IMG/VR virus record: IMGVR_UViG_3300020048_000002 | Direction: 5' to 3' (one strand) | DNA: 64,000 nt | Source: a virus | Taxonomy: Duplodnaviria > Caudoviricetes | In this document: positions 1 through 58,983 of the stretch, piece after piece | Numbering within the stretch: the first letter of the stretch is position 1 | Layout of the letters: each line of letters opens with the position of its first letter | Program-made: the position numbers and the translations under genes | Notes under the pieces: generated by a model | Seen by the model: the letters and a program-made list of their open reading frames with translations, nothing else | Told to the model about the DNA's origin: nothing | Databases searched by the model: none

Positions 1-92
1 GGAGCGAGCGGAAAATGCTCGCTCGGAGTTCCATCGCCGCAAAACGAAGGGAGGCAACGCGATCCATCACCTCCCCCGACTTATCAAAGGAT

Positions 93-890
93 TCAACCCT
101 GTCTGAGACGTTGAATCCTGTAAGTCACAGACCGAGACAGCTTCAGCCTACGTGCTGCCTCCAGAGCCGTGCAACCCTCGGAGAGTAGGGAGCAGAAGTC
201 GGGTTCAGCCGGACCTAGCTGGAGTTGTTCGATCGCAGATTGGACCTCAACACGAGCAACCACCCGACGCGCTGCTTCGTTTACGTCGGAGACGACATCG
301 AACAAATCCATCTCGGCCTCGTGATCGGATTTTGGCCGGATGTGAAAGTCGATGGGTCGATCCTTGTGTCTTCGGTGAAACGTCCGACACCAGTTGGCCC
401 ATGCGTTGTGAACCGCCTGTTGAAGGTACGTTCGGAAGTGAGCCCCCGTCGAATGAGGGATCAGGCGCTCAGAATCCGCGATCTTCTCGTGGTGCTCGTA
501 GACGGAAAACTCGTACTTTTCGACATCATCTGTCGCCCAAAGTGCATCTAGGGAGTCCACGTCCCCAGCGATCGGTGTAGGCATCCAGGAGATTGTCCGA
601 TCCCCGCTGTGGTACAACGCTTGAGCATCACACCACGAGTCCACCGAGATCCCAAGATGCTGACATACCTCCTCGGTCGTCAAAGCATCCGGACGAGCTT
701 CCGCCGCCCGTCGGTGGAACTTCTCGACGATACGAGCCTCCACCAGACGGAGCAAGACCGACTGATGGATGTCCTCGAAATTTTCGTTCCGGCGGTTGTA
801 CCGCAGAACGAGACTCGCGATGTACCCTCCGTACATCGCGATGAGTTCATCGTTGTTCTGGGGGATCTTTCCCCCCGTTTGTTCCTCCAC
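93..890 (-). CDS. ECF-type RNA polymerase sigma factor with Xis/MerR-like HTH inserted in sigma2
   Basis: Sigma2.1-2.2 (LIAMYGGYIASLVLRY..FEDIHQSVLLRL), ~95-aa insert with LTTEEVCQHLGIS..W HTH, sigma2.3-2.4 (FRTYLQQAVHNAWANWCR), sigma4 HTH (EGCTALEAARRLKLSRSVTYR); GGAGG RBS before GTG. Confidence 0.7.
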   Translation of the reverse strand: MEEQTGGKIPQNNDELIAMYGGYIASLVLRYNRRNENFEDIHQSVLLRLVEARIVEKFHRRAAEARPDALTTEEVCQHLGISVDSWCDAQALYHSGDRTISWMPTPIAGDVDSLDALWATDDVEKYEFSVYEHHEKIADSERLIPHSTGAHFRTYLQQAVHNAWANWCRTFHRRHKDRPIDFHIRPKSDHEAEMDLFDVVSDVNEAARRVVARVEVQSAIEQLQLGPAEPDFCSLLSEGCTALEAARRLKLSRSVTYRIQRLRQG

Positions 891-903
891 GCTTACCTCC
901 CCC

Positions 904-935
904 CTAGTACGACTGAGACAGGCTCAAAATCAACC
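904..935 (-). promoter_or_regulatory. Repeated phage promoter motif, copy 1 (upstream of sigma gene)
   Basis: GGTTGATTTTGAGCCTGTCTCAGTCGTACTAG on minus strand. Confidence 0.8.
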
Positions 936-1725: not shown

Positions 1726-3306
1726 TCACGAGTCGAAGTAGTTTTCGCTCAGAAGCCTCGCCCGAAGGTAATCCGGGTCTGCGTAAGGCTCGTCTTCACG
1801 GATGATGAAAAGCCGGAACCGTCCATCCTCTCTTACCTGCCGTGCCTTCTCACGATCCCGTTCGACAAGCTCCTCGTAAGTGCTTCCCTCTTCGAAGAAC
1901 CATACGGATGCTGGGTCGTAGTGCTGCGAGCCCTGAAACTCACATAAGAGTCGGTACTCGGGGAAGAAACCGTCAAAACGAAAACGGCCCCCTGTTCGAG
2001 GATTGATGAACGTCCCATCGTTCCACTCGGTTTCGTAGCTCGATGTCTCCAACACTTCGGCCAGTGTCTCCAAGAAGATAGCTTGAGAGACCGCTGTGTG
2101 TGAGATGGGTAACCCATGCTTTGCACACTCACGGCGAATCGTTACAAAGGCATGACCGAGACCCACTATTGCACGCCCCACCGAAATCTTCCCGTTCTTG
2201 AGTGCGAAGGGGAGGAGCTGTTCGGGGGACAGGCTGACCTCGTTGCCGCTTGTCCAGTATCGTTTCTCTCGAACGGCTGCGACAGATTGGCTCATGGTTC
2301 GAATACGGCTATCCGAGCCTTTCGTGAGGCCCTTCGACCATGTAAGACGACCTGCCATCTTGGCGGCATGACTCGCTACCCGTTCATCCGTGCCCTTTGT
2401 GAGACCCGCATTCCACCGACCCGCGTTCGCAGCCATCTTGGCTCGGGTTTCGGGGGAGATAGTGCGGCCCTTCAGGGGTGAAACTCGAACAATAGAGGTA
2501 GCCTTTGGGCGTTCGGCTTCTACACAGTCAGGGCAACGGGTTTCGTGGGTCGTGGGCGCAAAGGTTAGCCCCACCGTTCGGAGTGCCCCACAGGAGGAAC
2601 ACGGAACCGTGCGAGTCTGCCCTTTACGGGGAGACTCCCGATGAGCTTGCCGAGCCTGCTCGGCTCGTGCCTCCCGTAGTGCGTCGGCTTGTACTTCGGC
2701 CCCATTGAACCGAGCCCGATAGGCTTCCACGGAGAGATCGTGTTCGGCCCGAAGGTGCCCGTCGATCCGCACTCCACGGTGCCCACAAAGTCGGCACCGT
2801 AGGTAGTCCTGGCCTTCTTGTTTACCCGCCCATTCGGCCTCGGCTTGAGCTTCGAGGTAAGCTCGATGAGCCTCGGGGTCACCGTGTTGGGGACGAGCCA
2901 TGTGCCCCGACAAGCCCTTCTCGCCCACGCATCCTAGCCCACACACCGGACAAGTGCGATCGGCCCCACGCTCCTTCCCTTCACAACCAAGGCAAAGGAT
3001 GCGGTTGGAACGTGCCCGTTGAAGCACGTTCAAGGTCACGGGAGCCGAACACGAGGAGCAAAGCTCCGTCACTTCGGCGATTGTACGAGGCTTACCCGCC
3101 GTCGCACGTCCTGTCTCAGCGGCAGCCTTTGCTTGGATGGTCTTTCCTCTGGCGTCGAATGCTTCCTGCCCGAACTCTCCCACCCACCACTTGCGAAGGG
3201 TGTTGGGGCTGACACCTAACCGCTGGGCCAACGCCTTGAAAGGCTCCTCCGTATGGAAGAGTGGAAAGGTGTCGGCAGGTAGAGGGGCGTTTGGGTTTTT
3301 GGGCAT
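1726..3306 (-). CDS. Homing-endonuclease-like protein (Zn fingers, NUMOD3-like repeats, C-terminal PD-(D/E)xK/Vsr-like nuclease)
   Basis: CxxC pairs, HLRAEHDLSVEAYRARF, SPETRAKMA/WNAGLTK repeats, RFDGFF..LCEFQGSQHY nuclease motif. Confidence 0.75.
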   Translation of the reverse strand: MPKNPNAPLPADTFPLFHTEEPFKALAQRLGVSPNTLRKWWVGEFGQEAFDARGKTIQAKAAAETGRATAGKPRTIAEVTELCSSCSAPVTLNVLQRARSNRILCLGCEGKERGADRTCPVCGLGCVGEKGLSGHMARPQHGDPEAHRAYLEAQAEAEWAGKQEGQDYLRCRLCGHRGVRIDGHLRAEHDLSVEAYRARFNGAEVQADALREARAEQARQAHRESPRKGQTRTVPCSSCGALRTVGLTFAPTTHETRCPDCVEAERPKATSIVRVSPLKGRTISPETRAKMAANAGRWNAGLTKGTDERVASHAAKMAGRLTWSKGLTKGSDSRIRTMSQSVAAVREKRYWTSGNEVSLSPEQLLPFALKNGKISVGRAIVGLGHAFVTIRRECAKHGLPISHTAVSQAIFLETLAEVLETSSYETEWNDGTFINPRTGGRFRFDGFFPEYRLLCEFQGSQHYDPASVWFFEEGSTYEELVERDREKARQVREDGRFRLFIIREDEPYADPDYLRARLLSENYFDS

Positions 3307-3458: not shown

Positions 3459-6400
3459 TCAAAGCTGCGCTCGAACGTTGAAGGTCAAAACGATATACAA
3501 AAGCGGGAAAACAGGCTGGTAGTAAGCCTCGAACCGCAGCACGGTGGGGTCGTTGGGGTCGACTGCCGAGCTGATGCCCGTGAAGGCTGCCACGATCTCA
3601 GCCGAGACGAGCTGCTTGAAAAGGCTCGTCATGGTGAGGTTGACCTCCTGGACGCGACCAGCAAGGAACTTCGTTCCGACGAACCGATCGAGAGTGAACC
3701 GGCTCTGCTGCTGAACGTGGTCGGAGATCTGCGTGACCGTGGGGAGGCGCGTGAGGATCGAGTCCATCTTGGTCGTGAGACCCTGACGAACACGAACGAT
3801 CGGATCGAGGTCCTCTAGGAGAGTCACGCCCTTCACGGCTGTCTGGTTCGCTTCCACCGGATCCAGGATGCGGGGGATTCGGGTGAAGCCTTGGATCTGA
3901 CGGCGCGTGTACGGCGTTGCCACGTCCACCGAGGGGCTCACCACCGCACCGGCCATGGCCGCTGCGAAGAACGAACCGTCGACAACCGACTCGAAGCTCT
4001 GTCCGAGTTGGTCCGTCAGGGTGACGATGGCGACGTCGGGGTAGAAGGCCACGATACGGTTCGAGTTGAGGCTCGATGCGATCGTAGCTGCTGCCGAGGG
4101 CGTCGTGTTCGGTGCGAACCCGATGAAGCCCATCCGTTCCGCTTGGTTCTGGATGAGGCTCTGCGTCTCGCAGTGTTGGACGAGTTGGGCGTACACCGCC
4201 GTGGACGTGGCAAGCGGGATGATGAGATCCGGCTTGATGTTGCCCGGGAGCGGCGTCGTCAGCTCGTTGAGGGCTGCGATGAAGTTGGAGTCCGGTGCCT
4301 GGTTGCTGTTGGCTGCCTTGAGGACCTGCTTGATACCCACGAACAGGGCACCGTTCAGGATCGCCAAGTAGGCCGCTAGCGTGACTCGGTTCTCCGCCGA
4401 GGTTCGACCGAAGTTCGCCTCGATGGTCTTCAGTTGCCGGAAGATCCGGGTCGTGTAGTCCTGCTTGAGGTACTTGTAGCTGATGTAGTACGGGTCCCCG
4501 TTGGCAGGCTCGATACCCGTTGGAGCAAACGTCTGAAGGTTTGCCGTGTCCTCGGGGGCGACGCCAACGGTGTTGCTCACCGTCAGCTCCATGCCGGGAA
4601 CCGAGTAGAACGGGATGGCCGGGTTCACGAGGAAGGTCGGGCTCACGTTCATCGTGAAGCTACCACCAATCGTGTAGCTCCCCGTGCTCGACGGGAGGAT
4701 GGTGAAGCGTAGACCCGTCCCCGTATCCGTGTACGTCTGCCCCGGAATGCCCGTACCGGACGAACCAGCCGGGTTGTTCGAGCTGACCGTGAAGATGTCC
4801 TCTGCGTCCTCGCCAACGTCTCCATCCGTCCCGACGGTGATGTTGACCCCGGTCGTGAGGTTGAAGGCCGAGTTCGCACTGGCCACGAACCCGATGCTCG
4901 AAGTCGTTAGACCCGTGGCAAGCGAGATGATGCCCAGGTACGTGCGACCCTGGATGCTCGTCGGGAACGCTACACCCGCCGTCAGGAAACCTGCCGTCGA
5001 GTTGAGCGTGTTGGCCACCTCTTGAGCCGAGACTCGAATCTGGCTTGCGGCCTGATTCTGCACGAACCCAAGCGTTGCGTTGGCATTGCCGTCGAGGATC
5101 ACGAGAGCCGAAGTATCGACATTCGTGGGGCTCATCAGACGGAGCTTGTCGAGGTTGCTCAGGGTACCCGCAGAGGCAAGGCCCGCCAGGACGAGGTTGA
5201 TGGCCGCTGCTACTGCTGCCGTGGCAACCGCCGCACCTGCCGGGAGCGTGGCCGTATAGTCCACACCATCGACTCGAACCTTGAAGGTGTCGTTGACACC
5301 CGTCGTGATGGCGAACGGGCCTGCAATCTCCCCGAGGAGTGTGGCGGGCTTGTTCACCGAGTTGGGCGACCCGAGAGCCGACGAGAAGGTCGTGAAGCCG
5401 AGTGTCGATTCCGCCGTCCCTTGGGCGACGTAGACCTTCGACACAGCATCGAACCCGCCCGGAAGTGCGCCCGGGGTCGAGTACGACTTGACGATGAAGT
5501 GGATGTCTCCCGTGCCGGGACCACCAACCTGAACGCGAGAGCACAGGCTGTTCGGTGCCGTACCGCTGAAGGCCGGGTCGGCATCGATGGCTGCGTTGAT
5601 TTCGCCGACGATGAACGCGGGCGTCTGGTTACCCGTCGTGAGCGTCACAGCGATCGATACACCATCGATCTCCAGGTTGAGGTCCTCGGAGCCGCTGAGG
5701 ATCGACACCTTGCCGAGGTCGGGACCCGACTGAATCGGCGTGACCGCACCACCGACGAGGAAGCCCTTCGTCGCTGCCGCGAGGTTCGAGGTGTAGTTCA
5801 CCCCGTTCAGCTTGGTGACCCACGTTGCCGAGAACGGCGTGTAGAACGAGTAGGGCTCAGCACCCTTGATCACGTACTCCGCGTTCGTCGGATCTGACTG
5901 GTCGAACGTGATCGTGACCGTCTCGCTGACCGCCGTCCCAGCTCCCGTGTGGAAAGCGTCCGGCACCTGCTCGGCCCCACGCGGCCACTGCACCGTCTCG
6001 GGCAGGCCGACCTTCGTACCAAACCGGGTCTGGTAGAGGTTCGAGTTGGAGAGAGCCGACGTTACCTGATACTGACCGACGCCAACCGCTCCGGCGACCT
6101 TGTTCGTGAACGTGAACGTGTCGTCCTGGAGACGGCTGTAGTAGAACGTGGCGTACGCCTGGTAATCCGGCGGCACCGGGTCCTTGAGGCTGATACGACG
6201 GGTTGCACCATCGACCGTGGTGACCATGGCAGCCCCACGCTGTAGAGCGTCGTAGAACGAACGACCAACGTACACCTCGACAAGATCGGGGCGGTTCGTG
6301 GTGAGGTCCTGACGGCCATTGGTGACGAGGTTGTAGTCCGTGATACCGAGCGGCGTGTTGCGCCCGTTCCCCATCGTGGGGATCTCAGGGAGGAGGAAGT

Positions 6401-8335: not shown

Positions 8336-9496
8336 CTATATGATTCGTTCGTAGTCGCTGTTCCGGTTGGGGATCACCGGGTTTGTCGCGAAGAAGAGCT
8401 TCGACAGGACCGGCTGAATACCCGCCGTCGTCTCCGTTGCCTCCTGTACTACCTTGGAGAACGTGAGCGGCAACGGGATATGGATCTCCCAGTCCGCTCG
8501 AAGCTGCAAACCGATCGAGGCGTTGTAGTAGTAGTTGTCCCCCGTCTCGTCGTAGACTTCTTCGGCCTCCCCGCCCATGGATATGTCTACGATTTCAATA
8601 CCTTCGGTCTCTAGGAAGGGTTTGCGTTCCCCCCAAAGGTACATGACGACGAGATCGGCAATCTCCTCCATTTGGATGGGGTCCTGAGCGATGACGTCGA
8701 AGTCGAAGCTCACCTCGAACTTTCCACCGTACGCCTTTGCGGCCTCTACCCGATCCTCGTAGATGACCACGGCCACCTTGTCCCCCGTCTTGGCTCGCTT
8801 GCCAAAAGCCATGATGACGCCAGGAAGGGTCGTGTGGTCCGACTGGTTCCAGTAAAAGTCGATCGGCCCGATGCTGGGCACAGCGTAACGGTAGTCTGCC
8901 GTTAGGGTCGAAGAAGGCGCTACACGAACGGTCAAGGCCAAAGCCCCCGTCTTGTAGTTGACCGTGTAGTCTGTGCCCTCTTTGAGCAACGTGTTCTTGT
9001 TGACCCAGAGGCGAACCGTCCCTTGGACAGGGATGTTCTGAAGCTGCGCCTCACGTTCAATCCCAGACTCAAACCGCAAGACGGCTTCATCCGTGACCGT
9101 CAACAAGGGGTCCACGATGAACTGCCCTGGTTGTTGCGGGTTTTCAGGGGCTTGTAGGATCTCGATGTAGTAGATCCCAGGAGCCAAGGGAAATACATCC
9201 CCGTTGGCCTGAACCGCCATCAGGTCCTCTCGAACCCACTCGATCGGATAGGCCATCTCACCGACGTTGGTGAGCATGACGTGGCTCGACACGGTGCCCA
9301 TGAAGTTGTCGCCGGAGAGCGCCACCTTGCTGGCGGACGCTCCCTTGACCACAATCCCGAACTGGGGTCGCTCGTCGAAGGCGTACTTATTCTGAATCCA
9401 GGGGACGAGCTTGTTGTAGAGGGGGTGACGACTAAAGCTGTTCCTAAGCTCTAGGATCAACCTACGCTTGAGCGCCCCAATCAGGTAGTAGTAGAT
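8336..9496 (-). CDS. Virion neck/tail-completion-type structural protein (probable ATC start)
   Basis: Located in the structural module next to the sheath; frame extends to ATC at 9496 with AAGGAAGG 6 nt upstream; in-frame TAA at 9509-9511. Confidence 0.6.
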   Translation of the reverse strand: MYYYLIGALKRRLILELRNSFSRHPLYNKLVPWIQNKYAFDERPQFGIVVKGASASKVALSGDNFMGTVSSHVMLTNVGEMAYPIEWVREDLMAVQANGDVFPLAPGIYYIEILQAPENPQQPGQFIVDPLLTVTDEAVLRFESGIEREAQLQNIPVQGTVRLWVNKNTLLKEGTDYTVNYKTGALALTVRVAPSSTLTADYRYAVPSIGPIDFYWNQSDHTTLPGVIMAFGKRAKTGDKVAVVIYEDRVEAAKAYGGKFEVSFDFDVIAQDPIQMEEIADLVVMYLWGERKPFLETEGIEIVDISMGGEAEEVYDETGDNYYYNASIGLQLRADWEIHIPLPLTFSKVVQEATETTAGIQPVLSKLFFATNPVIPNRNSDYERII

Positions 9497-17033: not shown

Positions 17034-18284
17034 TCACGCAAGTAACCCTAGAAACGATGTGACTCGGCGAAGCACCTCTTCTTCGCACGCCTTCACTTCA
17101 CTCTCCCATACGATGAGACAGTCGATTCCGATGTCTTGGTAGGCTTCGACGAGTTCCCGCTCGTGCTCAAAGTTAGCCTTCCCTGTGAACATGCGGGAGT
17201 GCCAGTAGTTGCCGAACAGCTCGACTACCTTGGTGACACCGTGCTTCGGTTTGGAAGAGTCAGGCCCAGGGAGGATGAAGTCCGGGTTCTTGTGGTGCCC
17301 TAGTTTTGGAAGCCATCTCCAGAAACCTCCATCTCCCGTGTAAAGAAGAGTGGGGAAGTGAGCGGCGAACCGCACTTCGAGTTGGTTTGGGGTACCTTTG
17401 CCCCCGGCGTTAACCAAAGCCTTGAAAGCGATTTCCGGTACCTGCATAGGATGCGGAACGCCGTACTTTTGCATGAAGATAGACCGTAGAGTCTCTTTCC
17501 CAATATCCGATCCGAAGTAATGAGCCCCGTAGTGATCAAGCATGGTTTCAAGCTGCTTCTGTCGCACTTCGGGAAGCATCGAAGTCCATTCAACACCCCA
17601 TCGCTCCAAGTTCGTCTGGCGAGCCTTCTCATTGACCTCGGGAGAACACGAAGGGGCGGGGCCACCATACCGTTCAAGATTGGTAGCTTTGATGCGCTCT
17701 CGAATCACAGGTGCCGCCAATGCTTCCTCGGTCCCGTATCGCTCTAGGTTTGTGGCCTTGGTCTTTGAGCGTACCTCGGGCCTTTGGTTCGGGTTCTCAA
17801 CACCGTACCGCTCAAGGTTTGCCTGGCGGATCTTCGCTTGAACCTCGGGACGAGCAAAAGGATTGTCCGCTCCCCTCATTATGGGCCGATAGGGTGCAGA
17901 TGCCGCTTGAACCCCATCAAAGAGTTTAGACTCGCGGCTAAAGACATTCTCTGCCCCATACCGCTCAAGGTTTGTGGTCTTCCGCTTGTCTTCCGCACCG
18001 GGAACACGAGATGGGTGCGTGACCCCCTCCCCGTACCGTTGCTCCAACGTACCGGCAAGACGGGACATCTGAACCTCACCGCGATCCCGTCCCTTCCAAG
18101 TCGAGCACACAGACCGGTGCCGCTTCATCTGCGTGAGCGACGTCGTCTCATGCCCGCAAAGACACGAAAGGGGTTTCGTGTCACCAATCGTGAGCCGCCA
18201 TCCCGCACACGCTGCTTTGTGTCGTGAGTTGATGGTGTCGGACTTTGGAAAATGTGTCTGACAATGCGGGCATGTGACGGGCAT
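17034..18284 (-). CDS. Homing-endonuclease-like protein (TNLERYG repeats + Vsr-like nuclease)
   Basis: Multiple KxTNLERYG repeats; NPDFI..VVELFGNYWH..CLIVWESE. Confidence 0.8.
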   Translation of the reverse strand: MPVTCPHCQTHFPKSDTINSRHKAACAGWRLTIGDTKPLSCLCGHETTSLTQMKRHRSVCSTWKGRDRGEVQMSRLAGTLEQRYGEGVTHPSRVPGAEDKRKTTNLERYGAENVFSRESKLFDGVQAASAPYRPIMRGADNPFARPEVQAKIRQANLERYGVENPNQRPEVRSKTKATNLERYGTEEALAAPVIRERIKATNLERYGGPAPSCSPEVNEKARQTNLERWGVEWTSMLPEVRQKQLETMLDHYGAHYFGSDIGKETLRSIFMQKYGVPHPMQVPEIAFKALVNAGGKGTPNQLEVRFAAHFPTLLYTGDGGFWRWLPKLGHHKNPDFILPGPDSSKPKHGVTKVVELFGNYWHSRMFTGKANFEHERELVEAYQDIGIDCLIVWESEVKACEEEVLRRVTSFLGLLA

Positions 18285-18291
18285 TAACCGT

Positions 18292-18320
18292 AAGATACGA
18301 CCGGCACAAGCAAAAGTCAA
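18292..18320 (-). promoter_or_regulatory. Sigma70-type promoter, near-leaderless
   Basis: TTGACT-N17-TATCTT, 7 nt before ATG 18284. Confidence 0.6.
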
Positions 18321-18352
18321 CCGACTTTATGGGGTTACTACCCCACTACCAA

Positions 18353-19237
18353 TCAAAGGCCCAAAAACTTCCGGGGAGAGAGGACCCCTCGACCCGAATA
18401 CGGTCCGAAACTCGACCTTATACCCACACCGTACTTAGGCTGTTGTAGACCACGCACGATGTTGACCGTGGCCTTGGCCTTTTCCAGTTGCTTGTCGAAC
18501 TGGTCGGCGGCGGTTGAGAGCGCCCCTTCGTACTTGCTCGATTTGTCGATGTCGAGGGACACCCCACCGATCGAGTACGAAAACTCGTCCGCGATCCAGT
18601 TGAGCCGTAGGGCTTGAATGGCGTGGATCATGGCCCCGGTGAGCAAGAGAGTGCGCCATGCCGGGTAACGGGTGGCAAGGTTATCCAGGGTCCCGAAGGG
18701 GGTGTACGGGGGTGCTAGGGAGATAGAGTCCAGGGACCTTTCCAGGTACTCCTTCATCTCCTCGTCCTCCCAGATGTACCCGAAGACTCGGTTGAACTGG
18801 TTGATCGTCTCTTCGTGAGCCGGGGGCCTGAAGTGGTAGTTTCGGTCGGGGCTATTTGAAACGAGCATCCCCGACCGCACGAGGACGAAGTTGTGCCAAT
18901 CCGCCGCCGTGAGGTCGTACATGTACCGGCGAGACGGGAGTCTCTCGACCGAGAGAACCGCCACGGGAGTTTCGTGCCCGGCCACCAAAGTACCGACGGA
19001 AAGTGTCTCGGCTTCGGCCTTTCGGGTAGGCGTGAGGAACACCCGATGGCCCCCCGTTAGCACCGAGGAGCCGCGAGTTGTGGTGACTCGAAGAATGACT
19101 TCACCCTCTACTTCGGCGCGGTGGACCCTCTCGACTCGTTTCCAAGCGACTTCCCCGGTGGGAGAAACGGAACGAACCCGAAGAGTGCCCTTAGAGAAGG
19201 CCGTTTTTACTCTTTCGCGTTGCGAGTCGGTCAACAT
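18353..19237 (-). CDS. Fractured neck/head-tail protein, C-half: split-intein IntC (128 aa, 18854-19237) + C-extein
   Basis: Hint block B (VLTGGHRVF), block F (YMYDLT..WHNFVL), terminal SN|S junction, then SPDRNYHFRPP..YSIGGVSLDIDKSSKY. Confidence 0.85.
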   Translation of the reverse strand: MLTDSQRERVKTAFSKGTLRVRSVSPTGEVAWKRVERVHRAEVEGEVILRVTTTRGSSVLTGGHRVFLTPTRKAEAETLSVGTLVAGHETPVAVLSVERLPSRRYMYDLTAADWHNFVLVRSGMLVSNSPDRNYHFRPPAHEETINQFNRVFGYIWEDEEMKEYLERSLDSISLAPPYTPFGTLDNLATRYPAWRTLLLTGAMIHAIQALRLNWIADEFSYSIGGVSLDIDKSSKYEGALSTAADQFDKQLEKAKATVNIVRGLQQPKYGVGIRSSFGPYSGRGVLSPRKFLGL

Positions 19238-38290: not shown

Positions 38291-38355
38291 AGGCGTACTA
38301 GGGGAAATCGAAAAGTAGATTTTTTGTTGACCTCACTCCTGGCTTCGGGTACTAG

Positions 38356-38483
38356 GAAGGGGAGACGGCAAGAGGAGAGTGGCCCGTAGCAGGGCCGGGG
38401 ATCCATGGGCACCTCGACGGGGGTACCCCCTCGGTAGCCTCAAAGGTGTGGCTCCTCGGGACTGATCACCCCCCGTCTCCTTC
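38356..38483 (+). ncRNA. Candidate structured ncRNA (~125 nt)
   Basis: TTGACC..GTACTAG promoter-like site upstream; ends pair (GGAGACGG/CCGTCTCC); terminator-like hairpin + T-run to 38523; no ORF. Confidence 0.45.
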
Positions 38484-46703: not shown

Positions 46704-46806
46704 CCCAACCCGCCTAACCGACTAGGTTCCCACCAACACGTCATGCCTCTAGGCATTTACCCCGTTTCCACGGAAAATGCCGCACCCAAAAAAATTCGAC
46801 ACATCA

Positions 46807-46847: not shown

Positions 46848-47150
46848 TCAATCAGACAAGATCCGGTCCCAATCGGCTACACGATCGACAGGACGGGTCC
46901 GCTTGATGGACTCCAGCTCAGCACCCAGCCCATGCCGGTCCAAGAGGTCGAGACGACCCGACTCCGCAATGTCCTCCATGGAGACCCAGATCTCGAACCC
47001 GCAGTCCAAGCAACCTACCCGGTGCTCCCAGTTAGCGGTCCCCTCAGCAAGCCGAGCGTACTGGTCCAAAACCCACTCCCGGTGACCCGTCCCACCTACG
47101 TGATCACGCGCACCTTCGAGCTTTCGTCCCAACCTGCTGTCTTCCGACAT
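46848..47150 (-). CDS. Small Zn-binding protein, paralog of the C-terminus of 45819-46703
   Basis: ARDHVGGTGH..CLDCGF..SGRLDLL..DWDRIL. Confidence 0.6.
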   Translation of the reverse strand: MSEDSRLGRKLEGARDHVGGTGHREWVLDQYARLAEGTANWEHRVGCLDCGFEIWVSMEDIAESGRLDLLDRHGLGAELESIKRTRPVDRVADWDRILSD

Positions 47151-47342
47151 ACCCGACTCCCATCGTCCCGGATTACGGCTGACCAGGCATTTACACCTTT
47201 CTGGCCAAAAAATCCGCCCCGTAGAAAATTTCGACCCCCACCCCTCTCAGTCAGAAACGAACAAGGGGGTGGGGGGTGCGGTTCTAGAGAAGAACCAGAA
47301 GGGATAGGGGGAGGGAACAGGAAGGGGGGCAGAAGGCAGCCA

Positions 47343-47410
47343 CTCAAAGGCTACAGCTCAAAGGCTACAGCTCAAAGGCTACAGCTCAAAGGCTACAGCT
47401 CAAAGGCTAC
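47343..47410. repeat. 14-bp tandem repeat CTCAAAGGCTACAG x ~4.9
   Basis: Read directly. Confidence 0.95.
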
Positions 47411-47449
47411 CCAAGGCCCCACGGCCCCGAAGGGGCCACGGGCATAGGG

Positions 47450-52573: not shown

Positions 52574-52605
52574 CTAGTACGACTCGCGTACGCTCACGAT
52601 CAACC
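52574..52605 (-). promoter_or_regulatory. Repeated phage promoter motif, copy 5 (leaderless)
   Basis: GGTTGATCGT..GAGTCGTACTAG-gggc-ATG. Confidence 0.8.
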
Positions 52606-52611
52606 AAGAAT

Positions 52612-52644
52612 GAAAGACCCCCAAAGATTTCTCCTTGGGGGTCT
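52612..52644 (-). terminator. Terminator hairpin, identical to 53437-53469
   Basis: AGACCCCCAAGGAGAAATCTTTGGGGGTCTTTC. Confidence 0.75.
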
Positions 52645-53398: not shown

Positions 53399-53430
53399 CT
53401 AGTACGACTCAGAGAGGGTCAAACCCAACC
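53399..53430 (-). promoter_or_regulatory. Repeated phage promoter motif, copy 7 (variant -35, leaderless)
   Basis: GGTTGGGTTT..GAGTCGTACTAG-gggc-ATG. Confidence 0.75.
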
Positions 53431-53436
53431 GGTAAC

Positions 53437-53469
53437 GAAAGACCCCCAAAGATTTCTCCTTGGGGGTCT
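53437..53469 (-). terminator. Terminator hairpin, identical to 52612-52644
   Basis: 33-bp exact duplicate. Confidence 0.75.
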
Positions 53470-53472
53470 CCT

Positions 53473-55020: not shown

Positions 55021-55298
55021 GGTGTAGGTAGCGTCCTACAAGGACTCCCACACTGGGGGTCATCGGACCTCCCCACTTCAGCCAATCGAGTCTCCAAAAA
55101 ACTCCAAGGGCCGATACCCTCGGACAAGGATACCGGCCCCTAGCGACCTGTCAGGCTCGTCGTCGCCCCGAACTTTGTGGTTGTCGGCACCTCGCGCTCT
55201 GAGTTCGCGTTCTCCCGGCTGCGTCCGCATGACTCGACGGAAGACCCACCGTAACTGCCACCCTGTCCGGAGTGACCCCCGCCGTGGTCGCGGGGAAG

Positions 55299-55370
<72 letters not shown>

Positions 55371-55714: not shown

Positions 55715-55746
55715 CTAGTACGACTCGACACCCTCTAAAATCAACC
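55715..55746 (-). promoter_or_regulatory. Repeated phage promoter motif, copy 8 (drives RNA cluster)
   Basis: GGTTGATTTT..GAGTCGTACTAG with no ORF downstream. Confidence 0.8.
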
Positions 55747-57113: not shown

Positions 57114-57151
57114 AAGTGTGCCACGGGATTTCGTGGTGGAAGGAAACTGCT

Positions 57152-57751
57152 GTGTACGAAGAAGAGGACAACTTTTTTGATCCGCCGATGGAGGTCGAAA
57201 ACCCCATCTTGGAGACGACGGCTGAGGTAGTCGCCAAAGCGGAAGCCATTGCCAAACGGGCGATGAAGGGGTTTCGCAAAGGATCGAAACGTCCAGCTTG
57301 GGAACACCCGGCGGACGTGGTCGCGCTCGTGAAACGAGTCCCCGGGGTACGTCCCAACTTGGGAACGCAAAACTACCTGGAGGCTCTGGCGTGGCTCCAC
57401 GATGTCTTGGAGGACACGGAGGTCACGGAAGAGGATTTGCGAAACGAGGGTATTCCGGAACACGTCATCTTGGGGGTCAAGGCGTTGACCCGTGAGGAAT
57501 GGATGACGACGAACTTCTACTACCGGAACTTGGACCGCTCGTTCGAGCTGGTGAAGATCGTCAAGGTCTGCGACCGTATCGCGAACTTGACGGAGGGCAA
57601 ACCGCTTCTCCCCCGAAGCTGGTGGATGAAGTACACGGGGGAGACGAAACACTTCGTCGCCCCCCTGACCTTCGAGATGGGAGAGCCATGGCGAGCATGG
57701 CTCCTCGAACAACTCAAGTTGGCCGCGAGCGGCCCCGACTCTCAGTACTGA
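57152..57751 (+). CDS. Small alarmone hydrolase-like HD protein (SpoT/Mesh1 type)
   Basis: RKGS..HP..V, AWLHDVLEDT, VKALT, VKVCDRIANL; frame open from 57116. Confidence 0.8.
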   Translation: MYEEEDNFFDPPMEVENPILETTAEVVAKAEAIAKRAMKGFRKGSKRPAWEHPADVVALVKRVPGVRPNLGTQNYLEALAWLHDVLEDTEVTEEDLRNEGIPEHVILGVKALTREEWMTTNFYYRNLDRSFELVKIVKVCDRIANLTEGKPLLPRSWWMKYTGETKHFVAPLTFEMGEPWRAWLLEQLKLAASGPDSQY

Positions 57752-58983
57752 GCTGCCGCCTTCATGCCGATGTCGTACGCCTCAGCCCACTCCTTCATCG
57801 AGAGCTGGGTCGAGACATCGATGACTTTGGCTACGAGCTGCTTCTCCGTCGCATCGAGCGATGCAATCGCCTTCTCAGGAGCGTAGATGAGATCGTGCGA
57901 GAGAGCGGCTTCCATCTCGTTGACCGACGTCTTGAGCTGGAACTCGACAACGATCCCGGCAGCTTCGAGGTTGTAGTTGATGGCGTTGTACCCGATGTTC
58001 TTCAGGTAGTAGTTCTTCTTGTCCAGGATGTCGAACTTGCCCTGCGTCACAGCGGCGACATGAGCCATGTTCTGAATGCTGGGGGTCACCACACGGCAAC
58101 CTACCAAGTCCTTGAAGTAGAGCATCGAGGTCTTTTCACGACCCTGCTTGCCGAAGATGCTCTTCCCCATCTTCATTCGGCTAGCGTACTCGCCCTCAGC
58201 CGCACCACCGATGGCACCGTCGACCTCGGCCTTCGCCTTCTGAAGGATCGGTAGGACCGCCTCGTAGGCTCGGTCGAAAAAGACCGCATCCTTGATCATC
58301 TTCTCGTGAATCAGGTCCGGGTCCTCCCCCGTCGCCTGTGCGATGACCTTCTTCAGCATCTCGGCCTGTGCCTTGAGAGCACCTTCGGTCCGAGCCGAGA
58401 AGGGCTGTACGAACGCAGCAAGGTCACGCTCGCTGGGTAGAGCTTGCTCCTCCCCCTTTTCGAGCTTCTTCAGGATCGCCATCCCCTTGCCGGAGATCAT
58501 CTCCTTGTTCTCAAGGAGCGTCTCAAGGCTGAACCCCTTCTGGCTCATCTTGCGCATCTCCATGAGACGCTTCAGGACGTTGGCGTTGTTCCCGCCCGGC
58601 AACTGGAGCCCCTGGTCCGTGAGCCGCTTGATGAGCCCAATCGTGAAGTCGAGGGCCTTCAGGTACTTCGCCTTGGCTACAAGGTGACGGAAGGCTACAC
58701 GCACAGACATCGTGCTCTCCTGGAGAGCAACCGGCGACTCCGAAGCCGACTTCTTCTTTTTCTTCCCCGCCTGGAGAGCCTTCTTGGCAGCGTCCTCCAT
58801 CGACTTGGCAGCAGCTCCCGACCCATCCTTTTTGTACAGCTCAGCAGCGGCAAGATAGGCGACTGCCGCATCCTCGTGCCGATTTGCCTTCAGGTGGGCC
58901 TCAGCCTCATCGCGTAGCCCGGAAGGTGTTTTCGACTTGGGGCTCTTTTTTGCGGTCACTTCCGTGGCGTAGCGGCTCGACAT
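57742..58983 (-). CDS. Small alarmone synthetase-like (RelA/SpoT nucleotidyltransferase) protein with long N-terminal extension
   Basis: SRMKMGKSIFGK, DLVGCRVV, GYNAIN, VEFQLKT, HDLIY. Confidence 0.8.
   Translation of the reverse strand: MSSRYATEVTAKKSPKSKTPSGLRDEAEAHLKANRHEDAAVAYLAAAELYKKDGSGAAAKSMEDAAKKALQAGKKKKKSASESPVALQESTMSVRVAFRHLVAKAKYLKALDFTIGLIKRLTDQGLQLPGGNNANVLKRLMEMRKMSQKGFSLETLLENKEMISGKGMAILKKLEKGEEQALPSERDLAAFVQPFSARTEGALKAQAEMLKKVIAQATGEDPDLIHEKMIKDAVFFDRAYEAVLPILQKAKAEVDGAIGGAAEGEYASRMKMGKSIFGKQGREKTSMLYFKDLVGCRVVTPSIQNMAHVAAVTQGKFDILDKKNYYLKNIGYNAINYNLEAAGIVVEFQLKTSVNEMEAALSHDLIYAPEKAIASLDATEKQLVAKVIDVSTQLSMKEWAEAYDIGMKAAAQY

Follow-up and report, generated by a model that had tools for sequence, protein, structure and literature searches.

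A phage-encoded ECF-type sigma factor with a winged helix-turn-helix domain in its -10 specificity loop and a candidate promoter ahead of its own gene

The stretch of DNA analysed here (64,000 nucleotides, referred to as the window) comes from the IMG/VR virus record IMGVR_UViG_3300020048_000002, belonging to a giant uncultured freshwater phage, and is part of a contig of about 310 kb; its virion structural proteins and homing endonucleases show it to be phage DNA. A gene near its beginning (93-890, minus strand) encodes a protein of 265 amino acids, P0001, for which profile alignments and a structure model support assignment as a phage-encoded sigma factor of the extracytoplasmic function (ECF) type, resembling ECF group 4. 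The -10 specificity loop of P0001 holds a whole additional domain, which the models support as a confidently folded winged helix-turn-helix (wHTH) of the excisionase/MerR type. The gene is preceded by one copy of a sharply conserved, repeated two-block sequence, named the class-1 promoter in this study, which P0001 may itself read.

The gene begins with GTG at 890-888, 6 nt past a GGAGG Shine-Dalgarno sequence, and ends with the stop codon at 95-93. The N-terminal half of the sigma-2 domain (aa 13-65; 696-854, minus strand) was delimited by its match to the Pfam profile Sigma70_r2 and by the helices of an AlphaFold2 (AF2) model (13-31, 35-51 and 54-65), and comprises the helices of regions 2.1 and 2.2, D40 and Q43 of a "DxxQ" motif, and the additional helix at aa 54-65. 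It is followed by the inserted domain (aa 66-148; 447-695, minus strand), defined by AF2, by the VIA and Foldseek fold searches, by the profile HTH_17 and by its lack in the relatives P0021, P0140 and P0154. The C-terminal half of sigma-2 (aa 149-177; 360-446, minus strand) is matched by the NCBIfam profile TIGR02937 (sigma70-ECF) from profile position 50 on and contains the helix of region 2.3/2.4, FRTYLQQAVHNAWANWCRT, which is conserved more strongly than any other sigma segment of the P0001 family. An acidic linker modelled with low confidence (aa 178-204; 279-359, minus strand; predicted local distance difference test score, pLDDT, below 50 over aa 173-202) carries a conserved DLFD motif and occupies the place of the 3.2-like connector between sigma-2 and sigma-4 in ECF sigmas. 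The sigma-4 domain (aa 205-265; 96-278, minus strand), identified by TIGR02937 and AF2, consists of four helices (205-223, 226-237, 242-248 and 253-264), the last being the 4.2 HTH, and matches to GerE/LuxR-type HTH families span profile positions 205-265. Beyond sigma-2 and sigma-4, no further sigma region, neither 1.1 nor 3, was detected in the 265 residues, and nothing lies before aa 10 or past sigma-4.

An earlier note, made from the letters of the sequence alone, had proposed an ECF-like sigma factor, and the split profile alignments, the AF2 model and the sigma-2 fold matches all agree with that proposal. Sigma70_r2 positions 1-38 align to aa 16-53 of P0001, and TIGR02937 positions 50-153 align to aa 150-259. 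The region 2.2 and 2.3 segments that the note had placed about 95 residues apart, EDIHQSVLLRL (aa 39-49) and FRTYLQQAVHN (aa 152-162), are indeed separated by about 100 residues. The AlphaFold domain parsing that it had suggested models a sigma-2 fold and the four C-terminal sigma-4 helices; the full AF2 model, built on a 15-sequence alignment, has a mean pLDDT of 82, with values above 90 for aa 10-170 including the insert, and aa 173-202 disordered. In an unbiased VIA search of 48,161 chains, residues 1-171 of the model, with the insert skipped, match sigma-2 domains over 70-87 residues (Z 5.7-6.8, root-mean-square deviation, rmsd, 2.6-3.6 Å), among them those of RpoS, sigma-70, sigma-E (SigE), SigC, SigK, AlgU and SigW. 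These Z values are middling for helical domains; the match list is nonetheless dominated by sigma factors. Foldseek with the whole model gave only matches with E > 0.5 in the PDB because the domains are flexibly linked, a difficulty resolved by the VIA search and a domain-only model, and phmmer with the insert-less P0021 found nothing useful among PDB sequences. Across 51 diverse family members, Sigma70_r2 was matched in 29 at E <= 0.01 (best 1e-8) and Sigma70_r4 or r4_2 in nine. In the same 51 sequences D40 is conserved at 90% and Q43 at 80% in region 2.2; in regions 2.3 and 2.4, F152, Y155, L156 and N162 are conserved at 92% or more and N166, R169 and R173 are invariant. Y155, within FRTYL, is the equivalent aromatic residue of P0001. 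The C-terminal half of the specificity loop (LIPxxT...F; LIPxxTxxxFRTYL) is likewise kept and conserved in the family.

The insert adds about 85-95 residues between regions 2.2 and 2.3, of which about 70 form the wHTH and the others linkers. Since positions 42-71 of Sigma70_r2 align in P0021 straight after the first half of the domain, the break in P0001 falls at profile positions ~38-42, which is the loop between helices 2.2 and 2.3. The earlier note had remarked on the enlargement of this normally short loop, and the comparison bears it out, with about 95 residues in P0001 against about 15 in insert-less relatives. It had also seen an Xis/MerR-like pattern in LTTEEVCQHLGISVDSW (aa 70-86) and LWATDDVE (aa 117-124), which the fold matches corroborate. 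Rather than the unstructured segment for which the note had allowed, both models show a strand-helix-helix-strand-strand topology (by DSSP, strand 69-71, helices 72-79 and 83-94, strands 106-108 and 117-119, and then a helix at 120-133), with pLDDT above 90 in the full model and 82 when the insert is folded alone from 45 sequences. Helix 83-94 is the recognition helix and the strands 106-108 and 117-119 form the wing. The wing loop bears the family signature WMPxP, and the conserved return segment LIPxxT leads back to sigma-2.

In the full-model VIA search the insert (aa 66-132) aligns to small winged-HTH domains. When it is searched alone, the best matches are the excisionase RdfS (Z 5.4, rmsd 4.1 Å, 60 aa) and the TerS HTH 7lxs (Z 5.0, 2.5 Å, 54 aa), followed at Z 3.4-4.7 by CvkR, TipAL, BmrR, GlnR and RacA and the Pukovnik, Tn916 and GIsul2 Xis proteins; CbpM, CueR and SoxR are also matched. 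Only 99 of the 48,161 chains reach Z >= 2, and the top of the list consists almost entirely of excisionase and MerR-family DNA-binding domains. Foldseek returns a similar list at E 0.4-2. These modest scores can be attributed to the small size of the domain (~60 residues), and the list is coherent. Sequence profiles are matched below threshold, HTH_17 with 19.9 bits (cut-off 27) and the excisionase profile TIGR01764 with 17.6 bits (cut-off 28.8), both at aa 70-84 only and over the first 15 profile positions; among the 51 family members HTH_17 is matched in 13, with a best E of 1.7e-5. The conserved insert positions in these sequences are L79, G80 and above all W102-M-P104-x-P106, with P104 invariant, and among close relatives the insert is the best-conserved part of the protein (TTEEVCxHLGISVDSW ... 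WMPTPVAG ... DALWATDDVE). A transposed region 3 was considered for the insert on account of a weak SigF region-3 match (E 0.064) and was set aside, given the wing in both models and the excisionase/MerR fold matches.

Relatives of P0001 were found in numbers sufficient to compare proteins with and without the insert. A word-indexed search yielded 14 close relatives of 48-65% identity, all 259-280 aa long, and 1.84 billion cluster representatives (clustered at 50% identity) were searched exhaustively with a profile, which matched 252 clusters at E <= 1e-3, 181 of them also at E <= 1e-10. The insert, counted as present if at least 50 of its 70 positions were covered, is borne by 141 of 163 retrieved relatives. 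The insert-less P0021, P0140 and P0154 (191-210 aa, 28-36% identical) keep both sigma-2 halves, the linker and sigma-4, have about 15 residues where the insert would be, and resemble ordinary small ECF sigmas. The existence of such relatives indicates that a whole domain was genuinely inserted into an ECF-like scaffold to give P0001. The contigs with the gene for P0021 are only 1-2.5 kb long, too short to be telling, and showed no class-1 motif. No family relatives were found in 185,579 reference genomes by a pattern scan or in 50,697 deposited phage records by tblastn, and the family is so far purely metagenomic, coming from lake samples, IMG/VR and contigs of metagenome-assembled genomes of up to 490 kb. 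Some members have longer inserts (up to ~118-180 aa, with the extra residues after the recognition helix) or N-terminal extensions of 150-330 aa (variant members P0035, P0036, P0058, P0063, P0103, P0115 and P0024, P0042, P0050, P0093). Pfam profiles run on ten N-terminally extended members matched nothing except DUF2924/RAMA in P0039. The scaffold of the family thus seems to accept further modules.

The class-1 copy ahead of the sigma gene has its -35 block, GTTGATTTTG, at 925-934 (minus strand; -35 to -26) and its -10 block, GTCGTACTAG, at 904-913 (minus strand; -14 to -5 when -11 is assigned to the G of CGTA), 13 nt ahead of the start codon, just where the earlier note had reported a repeated motif. 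The predicted start site at 899 would leave a 9-nt leader carrying the Shine-Dalgarno sequence. The window contains 15 exact copies of GTCGTACTAG and 21 with at most one mismatch, against an expectation for the latter of 2.3 +/- 1.4, and none of 100 shuffles reached that count. GGTTGATTTTG stands at a fixed distance before every copy, giving the consensus GTTGAT(TTTG)-N11-A-GTCGTACTAG-G, i.e. GTTGAT-N17-CGTA(CTAG). In nine of the 15 copies a start codon (eight ATG, one GTG) lies exactly 4 nt past GTCGTACTAG; past the remaining copies lies either a leader with a Shine-Dalgarno sequence or a non-coding stretch that precedes a tRNA. A relaxed pattern, GTTGA[TC]-N16-18-GTA, finds 17 sites where 1.8 are expected and adds one clear variant, at 18321. 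That it adds so little indicates that the ten-base block is truly near-invariant and not an artefact of the search. Small genes occupy the region at 50-62 kb in which thirteen class-1 copies lie; no copy stands before a virion gene, and several come after hairpin-plus-T terminators.

Conservation is confined to -36 to -26 and -15 to -4, with ten variable positions between, and this two-block pattern with a variable spacer is that of a sigma-type promoter rather than one for a single-subunit polymerase. With 11-12 conserved positions, the -10 block is longer than usual. The geometry was derived by comparison with the open complexes of sigma-H, where the master base is at -9 and the specificity loop is disordered without region 1.2, and of sigma-L, where the -10 element is of CGT type and its G is flipped; ECF -10 elements are of CGT or GTT type and lie about 2 nt nearer the start site than those of primary sigmas. 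With the A of the start codon as +1, the CGTA core falls at -12 to -9 (G at -11, A at -9) and GTTGAT at -35 to -30. The coincidence of start codon and predicted +1 in nine of 15 copies points to leaderless messenger RNAs for most class-1 transcripts. A primary-sigma reading, with TA as -12/-11, fits poorly: the start site would fall inside or beyond the ATG, and the required T at -7 is absent in every lineage. From the sequences we infer an ECF-like promoter with mostly leaderless transcripts.

Several individual copies deserve description. A class-1 promoter without an open reading frame (ORF) at 55724 (minus strand) lies about 350 nt upstream of a tRNA-Thr gene (55298-55370, minus strand), and in the related locus L004 a class-1 promoter at 17928 (plus strand) similarly lies about 350 nt upstream of a tRNA gene (18291-18362, plus strand). 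On account of such ORF-less copies ahead of tRNA genes, the promoter class seems also to drive tRNA or non-coding transcripts. A terminator-like hairpin, GACCCCCAAGGAGAAATCTTTGGGGGTC, with a T-run occurs twice on the minus strand (~52600-52640 and ~53430-53470), each time just upstream of a class-1 promoter, which suggests duplicated terminator-promoter cassettes. Variant or partial copies exist as well: GTTGAC-N17-GTCGTATCTTA (18291-18321, minus strand) stands at the start of a homing-endonuclease ORF (17034-18320), and at 38292-38360 (plus strand) GTTGAC-N17-GGTACTAG comes after GGCGTACTAG, in antisense orientation to the genes around it. The class-1-driven gene at 57116-57751 (plus strand) is convergent, with a 10-nt overlap, with the gene at 57742-58983 (minus strand), the 413-aa product of which has a RelA/SpoT synthetase domain (Pfam E 7.5e-9).

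Six lineages have a version of the promoter immediately upstream of their sigma gene, namely the window and the loci L001, L004, L006, L011 and L012. The consensus is GTTGGT-N..-CTCACCTCGTAGAGG in L001 (sigma 56% identical, 7 copies in the locus), GTTGATC-N..-TCGTAGTA in L004 (57%, 5 copies), GTTGAT-N16-(C/T)CGTAG in L006 (56%), GTTGATC-N..-TGTAG in L011 (35%) and (C/T)TTGATCG-N14-TGTA in L012 (30%, 6 copies); copies were counted only in the three loci for which a number is given. The copy before the sigma gene of L006 is degenerate (cTTGcT-N16-gGTAGTC). In these five loci the start codon often lies 8 nt past GTA. The lineages share the core TTGAT-N18-GTA and have flanks of their own; the -10 core (C/T)GTA is invariant, and no T is conserved at the position equivalent to -7. 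In L003 (sigma 32% identical) GTTGAT-N16-CCTAG is found upstream of the sigma gene, and no further promoter copies were found within 12.5 kb. Two short sequences without a start codon (e.g. ...AGCCGCGAAGCCACCCAAGTCCGA, ...GGGACGACGCCGAAACGGTCGGGC) are conserved immediately downstream of class-1 promoters across lineages, at L001 ~4557-4600, L004 ~8568-8610, L006 ~8718-8760 and L011 ~2700-2740, and at L001 ~13096, L004 ~17960 and L006 ~15885. The first of the two is not present in the window, and a search of L004 with Rfam returned tRNAs only. These conserved sequences are candidate leaders or small RNAs.

About 24 nt past the sigma gene a second gene starts (ATG at 67-65, MDRVASLRFAA...; 1-67, minus strand) and runs off the edge of the window; its product would have ~290 aa. 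Its complete homologues encode products of about 260-305 aa with the N-terminus MDR[IV]ASLR... and no Pfam match. The gene adjoins the sigma gene, again at about 24 nt, in eight lineages including an insert-less one. Homologues follow the sigma gene in L001 (6769-7602), L003, L004 (10835-11701), L006 (10867-11784), L009 (733-1509), L012 (7554-8321) and L013 (10844-11653). In hhalign the partner family aligns with the P0001 family from region 2.3 to the start of sigma-4 (probability 82.8%, E 9.4e-6), and its PDB profile matches are SigR sigma-2 (E 0.015) and SigH (E 0.11). Judged by these alignments and the gene order, the partner is a divergent sigma paralogue that would be co-transcribed with the sigma gene. 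A complex prediction for the sigma P0005 and the partner P0164 gave a score of 0.00 and no verdict, and it bears on binding in neither direction. For a few members of a look-alike of the partner in the Atlas, Verrucomicrobiota is named, which is too little to point to a host.

Various known systems can be compared with P0001. The protein is like ECF group 4 (M. tuberculosis sigma-H, 5zx2, and sigma-L, 6dv9; E. coli sigma-E, 2map and 6jbq) in having sigma-2 and sigma-4 without regions 1.1 and 3, the DxxQ motif, an acidic connector and the 4.2 HTH, and in the candidate promoter with a CGT-type -10 element and a copy before the sigma's own gene. It differs in the loop, which has 8-15 residues in these proteins and in the insert-less relatives and holds a folded wHTH of ~70 aa plus linkers in P0001; in its -35 element, which is GTTGAT and not GGAAC-like; in scores that lie below the curated family thresholds; and in being phage-encoded and paired with a second sigma paralogue, with no recognisable anti-sigma. 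Sigma-HetZ of Anabaena (PNAS 2026, PMC13342950) has three domains added to an ECF-type sigma, and two of them recognise and unwind a TGnA -10 element. Its authors state that the specificity loop is not used, and it was described as the first ECF-type sigma with added domains that take over the reading of the -10 element (PMC13342950). P0001 resembles it in carrying extra folded domains on an ECF-type sigma, and TGnA (TGTA in patS) resembles (C/T)GTA. However, the domain order of sigma-HetZ (i1, sigma-2, i2, 3.2, sigma-4, i3) places the additions on either side of sigma-2, whereas P0001 has a single insert inside sigma-2; moreover, i2 of HetZ resembles TcaR/MarR and the P0001 insert is of the excisionase/MerR type. 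The insert shares the strand-helix-turn-helix-wing order and the "LTxxEaaxxLGIS" pattern of the excisionase/MerR wHTHs (RdfS, Pukovnik and Tn916 Xis; the N-domains of TerS and gpNu1; MerR, CueR and BmrR; overall VIA Z 3.4-5.4, rmsd 2.2-4.1 Å over 50-60 residues), but it is internal to a sigma factor rather than free-standing or N-terminal, and its wing loop is enlarged and bears WMPxP. Region 1.2 with the non-conserved region and region 3.0 of primary sigmas are likewise accessory elements beside sigma-2 and possible functional analogues of the insert: the specificity loop is supported by region 1.2, which also reads the discriminator, and the extended -10 element is read by region 3.0. Unlike the insert, these elements lie before 2.1 or after 2.4, are all-helical and have no wing. 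A survey of jumbo phages describes only minimal and RpoD-like phage sigmas (Iyer et al.), and the ECF re-classification excludes phage sigmas and does not mention insertions. A full-text literature search, outside which most subscription journals lie, turned up no account of a specificity loop that holds a wHTH.

The reading favoured here, to which we would give an even chance on the sequence evidence, is that P0001 itself reads the class-1 promoter and is autoregulated. Positive autoregulation is typical of most ECF sigmas, being common and not universal. The reading is preferred because an ECF-type promoter is persistently linked to the sigma's own gene across lineages, and it is by such linkage that the ECF field assigns cognate promoters (ECF re-classification). 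The sigma gene and its partner would be transcribed from the bipartite class-1 promoter, and P0001 would redirect the host RNA polymerase core and act at its own promoter, closing a positive autoregulatory loop. TTGAT at -34 to -30 would be the target of sigma-4, and the sigma-2 2.3/2.4 helix together with the retained loop half (LIPxxTxxxFRTYL) would bind the melted CGTA core. In ECF sigmas the specificity loop closes around the flipped -10 master nucleotide. The insert could make further contacts beside the core, with the duplex just upstream at -15 to -13 or with the discriminator at -6 to -4, or it could instead pre-organise the loop in the manner of region 1.2 of primary sigmas. The transcript would begin 9 nt past the A of CGTA.

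Several observations weigh against this reading. P0001 scores 22.5 bits on Sigma70_r2 (cut-off 24) and 32.1 bits on TIGR02937 (cut-off 42.9), and with all curated hidden Markov model scores below threshold it represents a divergent branch rather than a curated member. The -35 core TTGAT is constant across lineages though the recognition helix of sigma-4 (4.2) varies, and TTGAT resembles the universal primary-sigma TTGACA. The recognition helix of the wHTH is near-constant in close relatives, while the extended -10 flanks differ (CTAG, GAGG, GTAG), which argues against the insert reading those flanks; any DNA contact that it makes is probably with the shared core or the backbone. The class-1 genes have the look of early genes, being small genes clustered at 50-62 kb and tRNA genes, with none before virion genes, and the usual phage logic is for a sigma to be made from a host-read early promoter and then to switch the promoter class. 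An autoregulated sigma would also need a first source, such as leak, read-through or delivery in the virion. Finally, the second sigma-like gene in the operon means that P0001 is not the sole candidate reader of class-1, as either or both could read it.

Some of these observations can be accommodated by a sigma cascade, in which class-1 promoters are early promoters read by the host holoenzyme, the partner paralogue or a virion factor, and P0001, itself just expressed from one of them, directs the polymerase to another (middle or late) class with the wHTH helping to read that element. Such switching of promoter class is how the cascades of SPO1- and T4-type phages work. Group 2 jumbo phages rely on their own sigmas and the host core (Iyer et al.). 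A cascade would suit the distribution of class-1 promoters over the small-gene cluster and tRNA genes and away from virion genes, the primary-sigma-like and invariant TTGAT beside a variable sigma-4 recognition helix, and the second sigma-like gene in the operon. It is nevertheless a possibility on the unlikely side, since the (C/T)GTA core lacks the A-11/T-7 signature of primary sigmas, TA placed at -12/-11 would cut off the start codon, and no second enriched motif was found in the window. A second promoter class was sought there by k-mer counts and by reading the intergenic regions, and only one similar upstream pair emerged; GGTGTA-N9-12-start occurs 5 times where 3 are expected and is not enriched. 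The pair (~46720-46800 and ~47150-47240, both minus strand) shares TCGAA(A)TTTT ... GCGG(C)ATTTT ... GAAAnGGnGTAAATGCCT, has two copies in the window and may represent a different type of promoter or operator.

The role of the insert can also be separated from that of the sigma, which may still read class-1 while the insert serves as a protein-contact or regulatory module and not as a DNA reader. It may dock on RNA polymerase (the beta lobe or the beta' clamp), stiffen the loop like region 1.2 or the non-conserved region, or offer a surface to an anti-sigma or partner. The family-invariant residues of the insert are in the wing loop (WMPxP, G109, S113, A116) and not in the recognition helix, which in close relatives shows no co-variation with the differing -10 flanks. 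Sigma-H's specificity loop is disordered for lack of region 1.2, so a folded domain could serve structurally, and excisionase-fold domains also make protein contacts (CbpM and TniQ are among the fold matches). Against this, most fold matches are DNA-binding domains solved on DNA, the long -10 block of 11-12 positions suggests more contacts than sigma-2 alone makes, and the inserts of sigma-HetZ contact DNA; an insert that does not read DNA is therefore considered rather doubtful. It is very improbable that P0001 is not a working sigma at all, but a decoy or inhibitor occupying the host core or a plain DNA-binding regulator with sigma-like helices: its Pfam and NCBIfam scores are all below the curated thresholds, and -10 recognition could be lost with a domain of 95 aa in the loop on which it depends, yet the sigma determinants (DxxQ, the aromatic and Asn-rich 2.3/2.4 helix, the acidic linker and the 4.2 HTH) are what is most conserved in about 250 clusters, the insert-less members resemble ordinary ECF sigmas, and the specificity loop keeps a conserved C-terminal half.

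Two other features of the window may be recorded. Five head-to-tail copies of the 14-nt unit GCTCAAAGGCTACA occupy 47340-47415, where genes are few and runs of the GGGGTGGGGG type lie on either side; this iteron-like array may be an origin or a protein-binding array. Near the sigma locus, a gene at 1726-3306 (minus strand) that is absent from syntenic relatives encodes a protein of 526 aa with weak N-terminal matches to Ros/MucR-type zinc fingers and transposase HTHs and C-terminal matches to HNH/homing-endonuclease PHROGs; a mobile endonuclease is its probable identity.

In the usual view, a sigma factor reads the -10 element through a loop that is short and flexible. The P0001 family presents an alternative conserved across about 250 clusters of uncultured large phages, in which a whole excisionase/MerR-type fold is spliced into that loop. 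A broader and more speculative proposal, which we regard as unlikely but worth stating, is that huge phages have repeatedly made the specificity loop a dock for whole DNA-binding domains; in the present case a wHTH in the -10 reading head would go with an 11-12-nt block, a self-amplifying two-sigma operon and mostly leaderless early transcripts, with one of the sigmas maybe delivered by the virion. Natural insert-less relatives provide controls and the candidate promoter is sharply defined, so that the system lends itself to direct tests in vitro. Should the insert read DNA, it would represent a new route to longer and sharper promoter specificity that could be useful for orthogonal expression systems, and it would help to explain how giant phages without a polymerase of their own programme the host enzyme.

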